A program made the translations under genes and the position numbers. 64,000 bases of DNA from an uncultured Chryseobacterium sp. (GTDB taxonomy: Bacteria > Bacteroidota > Bacteroidia > UBA10329), in contig CAYWET010000008.1 in assembly GCA_964457245.1 (NCBI GenBank), forward strand, positions 30,270-94,269. The letters are read 5' to 3'. The notes below the pieces were generated by a model. It saw only the letters and a list, made by a program, of their open reading frames with translations, was not told where the DNA came from and did not search any database. Shown here one piece after another: positions 21,000 through 58,447 of this stretch; the first letter of the stretch is position 1; each line of letters opens with the position of its first letter.

Positions 21000-23900
21000 A
21001 TGAACATTAGTACGTTGCTTAGTTTCAATTGTGTGCACATGAGTAAATATTTTAAAACGATACTGGTACCGCTCGTTTTAGTCCTCGTGTGTGCATCCTC
21101 AGGGTATGCTCAACCTATAGTGATCACCGAGACGGTTAATGATGCCAGTACCAATGGAGGCAGTGATGGGAGCATCACTTTGAGTGTGAGTGGCGGGGTC
21201 GCACCATATACGTATGCATGGGACCACGGGCCGACCACGCAGGATGTGAGTGGTCTTTCAGCCGGAAACTATGGAGTTACGGTGACCGATGCCAACAGCA
21301 CGACTGCCGATGAGGACTACGTGGTGGGAGAGCCGGCTTTGTTGAATGTAAGTGCTAATGTCATTCCTGAATCTGGACCTGCTATGGTCGATGGCTCAAT
21401 CAACCTTAATGTCACCGGAGGAGTTGCGCCATATACATATTCATGGGACCATGGGCCAACCACCCAGAACGTGAACGGCCTATCAGCTGGAACATACTGG
21501 GTTACGGTAACGGATATGAATAGTGAAAACGTATATACCAGTTTTACTGTGACCCAATCCGTTCCAGGTCTTTCAGTCACCGCGAACATCACTCCTGAGT
21601 CAGGCCCAGCGATGATGGACGGAGCAATAAGTCTGATGGTCAGTGGTGGAAGTGCCCCTTACAGTTACTCTTGGGATTATGATGCTGGCCAGACCACGAG
21701 TTATGTTGGTGGACTTAGTGCAGGAACATATTGGGTTACGGTGACGGATATGAATGGCGATGATGTTTACACGAGCTTCACGGTGACAGAGAACTCTTCA
21801 ATATTGACGGTTGTCGAGAACATCACCGATGAATCGGGTCCTGCCATGGCGGACGGATCGATAACCTTGAGCGTTAGCGGAGGAAGTGCGCCATATAGTT
21901 ATCAGTGGGATCACGGTCCTACCACCAGAGATGTGAATGGACTTTCTATGGGCACCTATGGTGTGACGATAACGGATATGATGTCTGAGCAGACCTACAA
22001 GAGCTATATGGTTCACTCTTCAAGTTCCGGCCTTTCGGTCACTGCGAACATTACTCCTGAGTCAGGACCGGCCATGATGGACGGGGCGATCAGTCTGATG
22101 GTCAGTGGTGGAATGTCTCCATACAGCTACTCTTGGGATTATGATGCTGGCCAGACCACGAGTTATGTTGGTGGACTTAGTGCAGGAACCTATTGGGTTA
22201 CGGTGACGGATATGAATGGCGATGATGTTTATACGAGCTTCACGGTGACCGAGAACTCCTCGATGTTGACTGTGGTCGAGAACATCACCAATGAATCGGG
22301 TCCTGCCATGGCGGACGGATCGATAACCTTGAGCGTTAGTGGAGGAAGTGCTCCGTACAGTTATCAATGGGACCACGGACCAACAACCAGAGATTTGAGT
22401 GGTTTGGCTCCAGGGGTTTATAATGTCACAATCACGGATATGGTCGGAGAACAGACTTATAAGACCTATTATATCTATACAGATTCTCCAGATCTTTCAG
22501 TCACAGCGAATATTACTCCTGAGTCGGGTCCCGCTATGATGGACGGTGCCATCAGTCTTATGGTCAGTGGAGGAAGCGCTCCTTACAGTTATTCCTGGGA
22601 TTATGATGCTGGCCAGACCACGAGTTATGTTGGTGGACTTAGTGCAGGAACCTATTGGGTTACGGTTACCGATATGAACGGAGATAATGTTTATCAGAGT
22701 TTTACAGTGACAGAAAGCTCTACGATGCTTACTGTAATAGAGAACATCACCAATGAGTCTCCAGCGATGTACGATGGGGCCATTACGTTGAGCGTAAGCG
22801 GAGGGAGTGCACCTTACAGCTATCAATGGGATCATGGACCTACCACCAGGGATGTTAGCGGATTGATGTCCGGAACCTATGGTGTGACAATAACGGATAT
22901 GATGTCTGAGAGCGTTTATCGCAGCTATTACGTAGCTGCTTCAAATCAAGGGCTAACTATAAGTGAGTCGATAACCTCTGAGTCGGGTCCAGCAATGATG
23001 GACGGAGCAATCAGTCTTATGGTCAGTGGGGGAAGTGCCCCTTACAACTTTGTTTGGGATCACGGGCCAACCACTCAAGCCGTATCTGGTTTATCTTCTG
23101 GTAGCTATGGAGTTACGGTTACCGATATGACCTCCAATAGCCAATACATGAACTATTTTGTTCCTCAATCTGGCCCACTGAACGTCAGTCTAACCTCCAA
23201 CTATTATACATGTATAGGTAATGGAAGAATCATGCTGAATATATCCGGAGGAACTCCTCCATACAATATGACGGCTCAAAACCCAGGAGGTGACATTGAA
23301 TATTTCTGGATGGACGGGGCACAATGGGTTACTGATATTTACCAGACCGGTTTGTATGAAGTGACCGTTACCGATATGGATGGTACCCAATTGGTTGAGA
23401 CCATTGACGTAATGGATTCTCCGGAATTGAGTATTGCACTTTCATCTCCTTATAACAGTGGTAGCTACAACGTGAGTTGTTCAGGTACTGAAGGGGTAAT
23501 TGATATTACAATCTCAGGAGGGGTTCCTCCCTTCAACATTTATGTTACCGGAGAGTCTGAAATGGCGAATGTTGAAGCAACAGCTGCTGCCGCTGTTGTT
23601 CATAGTGCTCCCATGACGTTTACCACCTCTGAGAGTACTTTTCAGTTGACGGGTCTGGCTGCCGATCGTTATTACGTGAATGTTACCGATGTGAGTACAT
23701 GCGGAGGGGGAATGGAGGAGATTGAGCTTACCAAACCTTCGATTGATCTGCAAGTTTCCCCAACAGTTTATCCTAATGGTTACTATTTCTCTTGCGCAGA
23801 TTGTGACGATGGTTTAGTAACACCCGAAGTATTGGGCGGAACAGGACCATATTCCTACTCGTGGTTTGCTCCGCCAACAGAGGTGATGGACATGGACATG

Positions 23901-57324: not shown

Positions 57325-58447
57325 CCTGAGAACTAATTCGACCAAAAAGGAAGCTGCACGGTCATGGACCGAGCAGTTGTCTGAACTCATGTCACGGGAC
57401 TTTCAGCTCTCAGGTAGTTCTCTAAGCAATAGCATCAAAGAACAACTTTACTCTGATCTGCACCTGCTTATTGTGTCCGGTCTGGATATCCGTTCCTCAT
57501 TGGATCTGATATTCAATGAATCAAAAGAGGGTAAGGTCAAGAAGGTGCTGGGCGAGGTCAGAGAAGCGGTTTACGCTGGACGTTCGTTAGGAGATGTCCT
57601 TTCTGAAACAGAAGGATTTACAGAATATGAAGTACAGTCTGTAAGAATAGGAGAGGAAACTGGGGCTATGGCGGAAATCTTCGGGAACCTATCGGATGAT
57701 TTTAGAGAACGGATAAAGATGCGAAGGGAACTGGTTACCGCATTCAGTTATCCACTTATGGTTACTGGAATTGCGGTTCTTGCAGTTGGTTTCATGATGA
57801 CCTTCGTAGTTCCACTTTTCAGTGATTTGTTTCAAAGGTTAGGTCAAGATCTTCCGTGGTTGACCCAGCAAGTAATCGCTTTTTCGGAGTTTGTTTCCTC
57901 ATACTGGTGGGTTTTGGTTCTGATTATCGCACTGTCGGTAGTTTTCTGGACTTATGGTCGACAACAGCTGAATATTCGATTGAAAACGGACCTATTACTT
58001 CTGAAAATTCCGCTTTTGGGTTCAATTCTCAAGGAGTCGGTTATGGCGCGATTTACAGGTTCGATGTCCTTTATGCTGAAATCTCAAGTGAGCCTTTTAC
58101 GGGCTCTTAAATTGTCAGCCGAGATGACGGAGTTTTCGCTTCTCAAAAGGGCGGCTGTTGAAATTGAGGAAGGTCTGATAAAGGGAGAGAATCTGACAAC
58201 TCTAATCTCTAAGAATCCTTTGTTTGACAATCGTTTTACTGCCATGGTCAAAGTTGGAGAAGAAGTCAATCAATTGGAACGCGTTTTCAGTCATCTGTCA
58301 GAGCAGTACAGTGAACAGATTCAACGCAGAACCAAAACTCTAAATACGTTTCTGGAGCCCCTGATGATTGGCTTCTTGGGAATTGTGGTCGGGACTATCT
58401 TGATTGCGATGTATTTGCCTTTGTTTGAGATGAACTCAGCTTTTTAA
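57311..58447 (+). CDS. gspF: T2SS/T4P inner-membrane platform protein GspF/PilC
   Basis: Two GspF domains: SGL, IGEETG, AFSYP, VGEE, FLEP and AMYLPLF. Confidence 0.93.
   Translation: MAKIDLRTNSTKKEAARSWTEQLSELMSRDFQLSGSSLSNSIKEQLYSDLHLLIVSGLDIRSSLDLIFNESKEGKVKKVLGEVREAVYAGRSLGDVLSETEGFTEYEVQSVRIGEETGAMAEIFGNLSDDFRERIKMRRELVTAFSYPLMVTGIAVLAVGFMMTFVVPLFSDLFQRLGQDLPWLTQQVIAFSEFVSSYWWVLVLIIALSVVFWTYGRQQLNIRLKTDLLLLKIPLLGSILKESVMARFTGSMSFMLKSQVSLLRALKLSAEMTEFSLLKRAAVEIEEGLIKGENLTTLISKNPLFDNRFTAMVKVGEEVNQLERVFSHLSEQYSEQIQRRTKTLNTFLEPLMIGFLGIVVGTILIAMYLPLFEMNSAF

Follow-up and report, generated by a model that had tools for sequence, protein, structure and literature searches.

A predicted YD-shell toxin cassette beside a type II secretion-like gene set in an uncultured Chryseobacterium, and the recurrence of this pairing in Bacteroidota

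The DNA analysed here (the window) is a stretch of 64,000 nt from an uncultured Chryseobacterium sp. (assembly GCA_964457245.1, contig CAYWET010000008.1, positions 30,270–94,269 of the forward strand). It carries an island in which a tight, co-directional string of genes on the plus strand (21000–46208) lies upstream of a plus-strand gene set for a machine resembling a type II secretion system (T2SS; 47379–58447). The two largest products of the string, named P1 (2400 aa; 27680–34882) and P2 (3347 aa; 35636–45679), are predicted shell proteins of the YD/RHS type. Comparison of gene neighbourhoods supports the conclusion that linkage between T2SS-like clusters and giant YD/RHS proteins recurs far beyond chance, and the recurrence of this linkage irrespective of gene order speaks for a functional tie of YD-shell proteins to the T2SS-like machine. 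In our judgement, there is about an even chance that the machine is functionally coupled to YD-shell toxins in this island. The simplest such tie would be export or surface deployment of Sec-delivered cargo, a proposal in which we place the same middling confidence.

The linkage was surveyed in a phylum sample of 400 genomes, which was searched with P1 and with the secretin of the window; secretin loci with E < 1e-39 and P1 homologues with E < 1e-30 were counted as strong. Forty strong secretin loci were found in 37 of the 400 genomes, and 39 of these loci were fetched with up to about 20 kb on each side of the secretin gene, although contig breaks hide some neighbourhoods. When the proteins of the window were placed on the fetched loci by tblastn, P1-like or RHS matches (E <= 1e-5) were found in 28 of the 39. 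In four further loci (genomes G085, G005, G261 and G057) the giants were recognized as YD/RHS proteins by Pfam (TEN_YD-shell or RHS_repeat), three of the four being teneurin-like. The total therefore stands at 32 of 39 secretin loci linked to a YD/RHS giant, spanning 11 families besides the window's own. In 13 of the 39 loci, by manual reading of the tblastn maps, T2SS genes flank the giant on both sides; in the other linked loci the giant is found on either side and in either orientation. The order is pilin-GspE-giant-GspD in G053, for example, and E-D-pilin-giant-416aa-F in G148, G228 and G252, so that order is shuffled between families and adjacency is kept. The linked architectures comprise split P1-P2 pairs, fused proteins joining an SpvB-type N domain to an RHS shell, and teneurin-like proteins. 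One teneurin-like giant beside a secretin gene (G261, L082:3342-7850) combines NHL repeats with a YD shell and ends in a Tlde1 (L,D-transpeptidase-like) toxin domain, a sequence feature suggesting that some of the linked giants, at least, act against bacteria.

The same association was seen in other counts. Five complete genomes were compared for RHS cores inside the T2SS cluster, which held the only RHS core of G148 (1/1) and of G219 (1/1), all three of G097 (3/3), one of two in G339 and one of eight in G084. A strong secretin was present in 29 of the 63 genomes with a P1 match and in 8 of the 337 without one. A second, independent sample consisted of 80 named loci from metagenome-assembled genomes of close relatives, with flanks of only 10 kb to either side. 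RHS or P1 matches were present in 30 of these 80 loci, and in 20 of the 32 loci that had at least 9 kb on both sides, again on either side and in either orientation.

The open reading frames (ORFs) of the window were scanned with Pfam and NCBIfam, E-values and bit scores being judged against the family cut-offs, and ORFs are present in the window's list at the coordinates given by the first-pass annotation of this DNA. The signal peptides of P1 and P2 and all lipoboxes were read by eye. P1 consists of a signal peptide, an SpvB/TcB-like N domain with an RHS-type shell, a module resembling carbohydrate-binding modules (CBMs) at about residues 1708–1960, and a C-terminal SGS1-like domain at about residues 2124–2395. 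The whole protein gave no sequence match in Pfam, NCBIfam or the Protein Data Bank (PDB), its alignment profile retrieved only noise from the PDB (amyloid precursor, E 0.04), and scanning P1 in pieces gave Pfam SpvB at E 0.062, below the cut-off. AlphaFold models were made from a 25-row alignment, residues 1–1200 and 1201–2400 being modelled separately. Fold matches of the model of residues 1–1200 were to TcdB2-TccC3 (6sue_F) at Z 14.2 over 292 aligned residues, to the N domain of SpvB (6p0x) at Z 13.8 over 237 of 320 residues, and to YenB at Z 13.4. Shells of Tc, Rhs, teneurin or SGS1 filled the first 30 rows of this search, with unrelated rows at about Z 5. The C half contains a CBM4-like module (Z about 10), and residues 2124–2395 matched residues 1322–1556 of mosquito SGS1 with Z 16.0 (root-mean-square deviation 2.9 Å, 222 residues aligned). 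A TcB-like shell fold in P1 is supported by these models. The first-pass description of P1 as an SpvB/TcB-like YD protein thus stands at the level of the fold (Z 13–14), whereas the sequence matches fall below cut-off. Neither TcdB_toxin_mid (the TcB propeller) nor the TcA/VRP1 families were found among the window ORFs scanned, the genome beyond the window not having been searched for TcA. The P1 family comprises at least 1571 proteins; 120 listed members are unnamed or 'hypothetical', and one of these 120 carries a Pfam domain (CBM).

P2 is 3347 aa long from its TTG start, or 3332 aa from the ATG at 35681, and consists of a signal peptide, an N region of about 1900 aa, a YD shell, an RHS core at residues 3063–3146 and a helical tip of 200 aa. 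Its identity as an RHS-core protein of about 3330 aa, as first annotated, is borne out by a match to TIGR03696 at residues 3063–3146 (E 2e-12; 47.4 bits against a cut-off of 32.5). Very long proteins can give false blanks in whole-protein hmmscan, and P2 is a case in point: the entire protein matched no Pfam family, and the shell region scanned alone (residues 1850–3347) matched RHS_repeat PF05593 with 29.4 bits against a cut-off of 22. The core also aligned with residues 2649–2752 of SGS1 (8fjp; E 4.6e-15). Over its last 200 residues P2 is helical, and a single stretch there is hydrophobic. Because the tblastn matches of P2 homologues in related loci end at the RHS core, the tips appear to vary. 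No RHS core other than that of P2 exceeds the cut-off in the window's own genome. Elsewhere in it, ORFs of about 350 aa (C18:21304-23659) gave two partial RHS-core matches that are weak and below cut-off; these may be orphan toxin tips. Two further features of the giants agree with the first-pass annotation: Sec-type signal peptides are visible in both sequences, and neither P1 nor P2, scanned whole and in pieces with Pfam and NCBIfam, contains a PAAR domain or a type IX secretion system (T9SS) C-terminal domain (Por_Secre_tail, CHU_C).

Taken one after the other, P1 and P2 are collinear with the single chain of SGS1, as the N part of P1, the C part of P1 and the core of P2 follow each other in SGS1 order. 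In addition, T2SS clusters such as those of G109, G252 and G053 contain single proteins in which a P1-type N domain and an RHS shell are fused. This collinearity and the fused relatives support the view that P1 and P2 form one joint SGS1/TcBC-like shell, a model that also draws on the fold matches and on the fixed adjacency of the two genes. The two-protein cocoon imagined in the first-pass annotation is supported to the same extent.

The remaining genes of the string are all on the plus strand. It opens with two T9SS substrates: an SprB-repeat surface protein with a type A T9SS C-terminal domain (21000–24557; SprB E 1.7e-84, Por_Secre_tail E 2.7e-12), followed by an exported protein with a type B domain (24568–26493; CHU_C E 1.6e-10), a homologue of which holds the same position in G415 and G363. 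The gene of the latter overlaps by 11 nt the start of the gene for an Skp/OmpH periplasmic chaperone (26483–27037; OmpH E 1.7e-26), which is kept upstream of P1 whether or not a locus has T2SS genes. A 214-aa lipoprotein of no recognized family follows (27034–27678; lipobox FSGC), and its homologues lie between Skp and P1 in G363, G010, G341, G349, G249 and G415. Between P1 and P2 is the gene for a 258-aa exported protein (34879–35655), for which no Pfam or NCBIfam match and no tblastn match in any fetched locus was obtained. The string ends with a TPM-domain lipoprotein (45651–46208; lipobox LIGC, TPM_phosphatase E 7.1e-24) that had no tblastn match in other loci. The first-pass annotation had described a co-directional cargo operon in which Skp, a lipoprotein and an exported protein flank the giants; that much holds, but the two T9SS substrates that open the string had been missed. 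It was correct that no type VI secretion system (T6SS), TcA or type VII secretion system family is found by Pfam among the island ORFs scanned, and TssC had no match in the whole genome. The genome does encode the T9SS protein SprA. The claim that the island is a self-contained delivery system did not survive, since the cassette begins with T9SS substrates here as it does in loci lacking a T2SS.

The apparently complete T2SS gene set claimed for the island was borne out by Pfam and NCBIfam as an apparently full T2SS-like set of the Bacteroidota type, with strong matches for E, D and F and matches below cut-off for the M- and C-like proteins and the peptidase. C, L and M make up the assembly platform by which a T2SS is told from a type IV pilus. 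All of its genes are on the plus strand. The first encodes the major pseudopilin or pilin (47379–47780), with the prepilin motif KAF/TLTE, an N_methyl match (E 3.2e-6) and a ComP_DUS match below cut-off (E 3.7e-5). The T2SSG domain of Pfam was not matched by this protein, which is 46–66% identical across the related loci compared by tblastn. A short A24-type prepilin peptidase follows (47786–48307; Peptidase_A24 E 6.9e-4, 20.5 bits against a cut-off of 26.5), in which both Asp motifs were seen by eye and whose gene is kept beside the pilin gene in related clusters. The GspE ATPase (48304–49734; T2SSE PF00437 E 4.6e-131) is the sole match to the T2SSE family in a genome that is 98% complete, so that no PilT-type retraction motor is present. 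The N domain of GspE is of the MshEN type (E 1.1e-5). In MshE this domain binds c-di-GMP, and by analogy its presence would point to second-messenger control of the machine. The secretin GspD (49727–51643; Secretin PF00263 E 1.6e-36, above cut-off, with STN and Secretin_N) is the only secretin match in the genome.

Two genes kept after the secretin gene in relatives encode a 403-aa protein in the GspL position (within 51646–53390), which matched no family, and a GspM-like 177-aa protein (52857–53390; NF040576 GspM E 2e-4, below cut-off). Three further genes kept in related clusters encode a 313-aa lipoprotein with three YxWRVR repeats and no family match (within 53387–54328), a GspC-like protein of 158 aa (54328–54804; T2SSC E 0.006, below cut-off) and, after it in the block 53387–55361, a MORN-repeat lipoprotein (MORN_2 E 1.6e-11); both lipoboxes were assigned by inspection. 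A 416-aa protein in the GspK position (within the block 55309–57324) matched no family and adjoins GspF in many loci. For the 403- and 416-aa proteins, the labels 'L-like' and 'K-like' are based solely on where the genes lie and on their being conserved in related clusters. Two minor pseudopilins of 104 aa (56556–56870; N_methyl E 7.7e-4, just below cut-off) and 154 aa (56860–57324; N_methyl E 1.2e-6) bring the N_methyl proteins of the machine to three, two of them above cut-off. The set closes with the inner-membrane platform GspF (57305–58447; T2SSF PF00482 E 1.4e-44; TIGR02120 E 1.4e-69, below the equivalog cut-off). One YxWRVR motif, as in the repeats of the 313-aa lipoprotein, is also present at about residues 230–330 of P2. 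Homology of this lipoprotein to P2 or P1 was considered and rejected, as BLASTP was not significant (E 0.31 and 2.0) and only the motif is common. In other genomes (L073, L122 and L126) the domain of the lipoprotein was matched inside RHS giants by tblastn (E 1e-6 to 1e-12).

The cargo string and the T2SS operon are parted by a convergent gene on the minus strand (46201–46659) and a 0.7-kb non-coding gap (46660–47378). The 152-aa product of the convergent gene lacks a prepilin motif; its GspG-like domain is weak (T2SSG E 0.0012, below cut-off). Scanning the gap for promoters and terminators gave no excess over shuffled sequence. Just beyond GspF, on the minus strand, is a gene for a 1248-aa T9SS substrate with PKD, SprB and CHU_C domains (59129–62875).

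The left edge of the island is marked by a tRNA-Arg(CCT) gene found by ARAGORN directly after metG (16923–16995, plus strand), a candidate integration site. The 3' end of this tRNA gene is overlapped, on the opposite strand, by the stop-proximal codons of a gene for a 516-aa large serine recombinase (16957–18507, minus strand; Resolvase E 2e-24, Recombinase, Zn_ribbon_recom), beside which lies a gene for a MerR-like protein (18710–19663, minus strand; MerR_1 E 7.5e-4, below cut-off). The recombinase and MerR-like pair recurs in G408 and G099. In the congener G408, synteny extends up to metG and the pair occupies the same site (recombinase identity 58%), with no island genes at this site on a contig that ends soon after. 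In G099 (L065:14687-17224) recombinase and MerR-like homologues lie near a P1-P2 locus with four RHS tips on the opposite strand, and in L184 a recombinase homologue alone adjoins a T2SS cluster; these homologues could serve integration or tip shuffling. Of 21 genomes in the genus, two have both P1 and the secretin and 19 have neither; 11 of these 19 are at least 90% complete. The same cassette recurs in the congener G415, with T2SS genes in the same order, at a different genomic site. The tRNA and recombinase edge, the 2/21 distribution and the second site in a congener support an accessory and probably mobile island. Horizontal movement, as first proposed, therefore gains the accessory status and the left edge, but lacks in the window both a repeat of the tRNA 3' end (best match 25 of 45 bases, leaving the right edge unmarked) and a clear signal in base composition (GC 0.41–0.47 inside, 0.43–0.49 outside).

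From these data, the island is best read as an accessory element at tRNA-Arg with two modules that would be functionally coupled. One would be a polymorphic YD-shell toxin cassette made up of the two T9SS-signal proteins, Skp, the lipoprotein, P1, the small exported protein, P2 and the TPM lipoprotein; the other, a type IV filament machine of the Bacteroidota T2SS-like type, equipped with a single ATPase and a single secretin. Judging from their signal peptides, P1 and P2 would be carried over the inner membrane by Sec and could then be handled in the periplasm by Skp and the lipoprotein. They would assemble into a single SGS1/TcBC-like shell, as suggested by the fold matches, the fixed adjacency and the single-chain relatives. 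The conserved gene linkage suggests that the T2SS-like machine might then move them to the cell surface, or free them from it, where the CBM-like module of P1 would meet a target that is probably a competing cell. It seems physically doubtful that an assembled cocoon would pass through the secretin. Skp usually holds unfolded beta-proteins, and classical secretin lumens are narrower than the SGS1 shell. The latter measures 210 x 115 x 86 Å (PMC9935623). This size, the presence of Skp, the cassettes lacking a T2SS and the conserved T9SS-signal genes all argue against passage of a finished cocoon.

A number of observations weigh against coupling and export, among them cassettes without a T2SS. 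No secretin match was found in 19 of the 30 genomes with strong P1 homologues. In five of five such genomes searched with family models, Secretin and T2SSE both fell below cut-off, and all five have SprA. Where P1 flanks were fetched in nine secretin-less genomes (a tenth, G323, on one side only), the P1-P2 pair was intact, and no T2SS genes were found within 20 kb of P1 in those nine, except for a weak match to the 313-aa protein in G309. Some of these loci keep Skp, the lipoprotein and arrays of orphan RHS tips, such arrays following the main gene in G341, G259, G099, G301, G180 and G232. The gene ahead of Skp or P1 in T2SS-less loci again carries a T9SS signal, and T9SS C-terminal-domain genes precede Skp in many related loci whether or not T2SS genes are near. 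In G349 and G309, which were scanned, FG-GAP repeats are combined with Por_Secre_tail in the gene upstream of Skp, as they are in the cluster-mates from G249 and G341. In the T2SS-less loci at L057:1602-3908 and L055:255-2666, the product of the gene ahead of Skp joins ASPIC/UnbV and a T9SS C-terminal domain to an FG-GAP propeller, which recalls the TcA-docking propeller of TcB. Since complete cassettes occur in genomes without a secretin or T2SS ATPase, the machine is not essential to the P1-P2 family as a whole. By gene content, the core unit is the T9SS-signal protein, Skp, the lipoprotein, P1 and P2, with the T2SS-like machine as an add-on.

From the T2SS side, seven of the 39 secretin loci have no giant. 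Three of these (G203, G095 and G280) abut a contig end where relatives have the cassette; three (G395, G015 and G020) have none in the fetched stretch, and G128 is a lone secretin. The sampled genomes are related and hence non-independent, so that the counts overstate their statistical weight. In the window itself, the cargo and T2SS modules are separate transcription units. The models of P1 are of modest confidence (predicted local distance difference test 58 and predicted template modelling score 0.58 for residues 1–1200; 70 and 0.61 for residues 1201–2400). The P2 tip matched no toxin family in Pfam or NCBIfam and had no usable match in the ESM Atlas, and no immunity gene is evident near P2, the downstream TPM lipoprotein not being conserved. 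Such machines also have other clients, as the T2SS of Cytophaga hutchinsonii serves cellulose use (PMC5553014). The first-pass annotation had called for a survey of P1 neighbourhoods for gspD, gspE and gspF and would have abandoned its proposal if YD/RHS pairs mostly occurred without T2SS genes. Starting from P1, that is what was found, with most strong-P1 genomes lacking a secretin match; starting from the secretin, the giant is present in 32 of 39 loci. The relation is thus one-sided, in that the T2SS-like machine nearly always comes with a YD-shell giant, whereas the cassette can do without the machine.

The conserved T9SS-signal genes suggest another way out of the cell, in which P1 and P2 travel to the surface on these co-encoded proteins or docked to them, and the filament does a related job such as adhesion, target-cell contact or release of the complex. 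This T9SS-linked route is unlikely, although it would account for the opening of the cassette by T9SS C-terminal-domain genes in loci with and without a T2SS, including the FG-GAP and Por_Secre_tail genes described above, and for the presence of SprA in all five T2SS-less P1-P2 genomes and in the window's own. T9SS substrates are also enriched beside another class of polymorphic toxins in Bacteroidetes, for which T9SS export has been proposed (Jana 2020, PMC7073777). However, P1 and P2 bear no T9SS C-terminal domain themselves, no case of piggy-back T9SS export was found in the literature examined, and the giants in 32 of 39 T2SS clusters, 13 of them between T2SS genes, would be left unexplained. 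A quite improbable alternative makes the YD-shell proteins structural or regulatory accessories of the filament, such as tip adhesins or extension regulators, and not secreted toxins. Three of five Bdellovibrio RHS elements adjoin pilus genes, and Bd0109 has been linked to pilus regulation (Capeness 2013, PMC3818213). A P2 tip without a toxin family or evident immunity gene, the CBM-like module of P1 and the teneurin-like architectures among linked loci would also suit an accessory. Variable tips, orphan tip arrays in six genomes and a linked giant ending in Tlde1 would not, and P1-P2 cassettes occur in genomes without any filament genes.

Co-location might also have no functional meaning, if two accessory modules gather in the same integration hot spots and travel together. 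The tRNA-Arg and serine recombinase at the left edge, the homologous recombinase at the same site in a congener without island genes, the recombinase homologues near related loci (G099 and L184) and the separate operons of the two modules are all in keeping with co-travel. We nevertheless give this explanation little credence, as adjacency is kept over 11 families despite shuffled order, the giant lies between T2SS genes in a third of the loci (13/39), and every RHS core lies inside the T2SS cluster in three complete genomes. Finally, the filament could be a DNA-uptake (competence) pilus and the RHS cassette a means of killing neighbours to free DNA, the two being coupled in function and not through export. 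The pilin has its weak ComP_DUS match, below cut-off, and the type IV pilus and T2SS homologues of Flavobacterium johnsoniae could form a DNA-uptake system (Huang 2021, PMC7965970). F. johnsoniae was, however, not transformable under the conditions used in that study. The single T2SSE-family ATPase leaves no PilT-type retraction motor, and the secretin cluster has C-, L- and M-position genes, as T2SSs do, which makes a competence pilus very improbable.

Export or surface deployment of the giants by the T2SS-like machine can also be considered beyond this island. Bacteroidota T2SS-like filament machines as a class may be dedicated deployment devices for YD-shell (RHS, TcBC-like and teneurin-like) polymorphic toxins, a wider claim to which we would give somewhat less than an even chance. 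If true, class-wide deployment would be an RHS delivery route distinct from the T6SS, from Tc release by type X secretion system (T10SS) lysis and from the T9SS. To our knowledge, the exit of Sec-exported RHS/Tc-like giants from Gram-negative cells is largely unexplained beyond the T6SS and lysis, and we know of no dedicated substrates for Bacteroidota T2SS-like loci. The phylum-wide conserved pairing yields a concrete hypothesis that can be tested by knock-outs, and it suggests which proteins might be the cargo of the secretin complexes seen by cryo-tomography. In F. johnsoniae, secretin-like complexes that sit at outer-membrane tube tips show an unexplained extracellular density (PMC8455137); speculatively, the giant shells might be that density. 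The P1 family gains its first fold-level assignment, and bacterial P1-P2 pairs are tied to the architecture of mosquito SGS1. In the literature examined, mostly open papers without their supplements, neither a survey of T2SS-RHS linkage nor a claim of RHS export by a T2SS was found for Bacteroidota.

Among known systems, the BC cocoon of Tc toxins (TcdB2-TccC3 and YenB-YenC) resembles the P1-P2 pair in being encoded by two adjacent genes, of which the first product has an SpvB-type N domain and RHS shell (Z 13–14) and the second carries at its end an RHS core and, after it, a variable tip. It differs in several respects. No TcA partner is present among the window ORFs scanned, P1 and P2 both have Sec signal peptides, and the TcB propeller families were undetected by Pfam in P1. 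TcC is about one-third the length of P2, which has its own N region of 1900 aa. Release of the Yersinia entomophaga Tc toxin is reportedly lysis-based (T10SS). T6SS-linked Rhs effectors such as Tse5, RhsP and Tse15 likewise share a YD shell, an RHS core and polymorphic tips with the giants (fold matches Z 10–12). In contrast to these effectors, P1 and P2 have Sec signal peptides and no detected PAAR or VgrG-binding domain, and the genome has no TssC match.

Mosquito SGS1 (8fjp) is matched in the same order by the N part of P1, the C part of P1 and the core of P2, and in both cases a CBM decorates the shell. The helical, partly hydrophobic segment after the core of P2 can be compared with the C-terminal helices of SGS1 (PMC9935623). 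SGS1 is, however, a single eukaryotic chain of 3364 aa as opposed to two bacterial proteins totalling 5747 aa, and sequence similarity is confined to the core.

The machine itself has close counterparts in C. hutchinsonii (chu_3191-3201; Wang 2017) and in Flavobacterium psychrophilum CC-ST10, where the gene set is the same and the genes for C/L/M and for the minor pseudopilins are likewise divergent. Cellulose use in C. hutchinsonii requires its T2SS (Wang 2017, PMC5553014), and the terms 'Rhs' and 'YD repeat' do not occur in the available text of that paper. Its Table 2 also covers Fjoh_0611-0622 and Odosp_1507 to Odosp_1522, where the locus numbers skip 14 genes; RHS or YD giants there, if present, would carry the pattern to model strains. 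The F. psychrophilum CC-ST10 cluster is strain-specific, spans about 35 kb and has two divergent T2S loci with ABC-toxin-domain proteins between them (Duchaud 2018, PMC5808330), the same layout as described here. Among the papers found, Duchaud 2018 is the only one that notes the architecture, in passing. As far as the accessible parts of the two papers go, neither contains a linkage survey or proposes RHS export. The TANFOR polymorphic toxins of Bacteroidetes are also large, have Sec signals and lie just downstream of SprB-repeat and C-terminal-domain T9SS substrates (Jana 2020, PMC7073777). In the available text, T9SS export was proposed for them and no T2SS link was reported. P1 and P2 further differ from TANFOR toxins in that they matched no NCBIfam family besides the RHS core.

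T2SSs with a dedicated neighbouring substrate include the Pul system with PulA and the E. coli T2SS-beta with SslE, in which the gene for a large substrate lies beside or inside the secretion cluster. These substrates are enzymes or lipoproteins of about 120–170 kDa, whereas the cargo here would consist of YD shells of 260–370 kDa.

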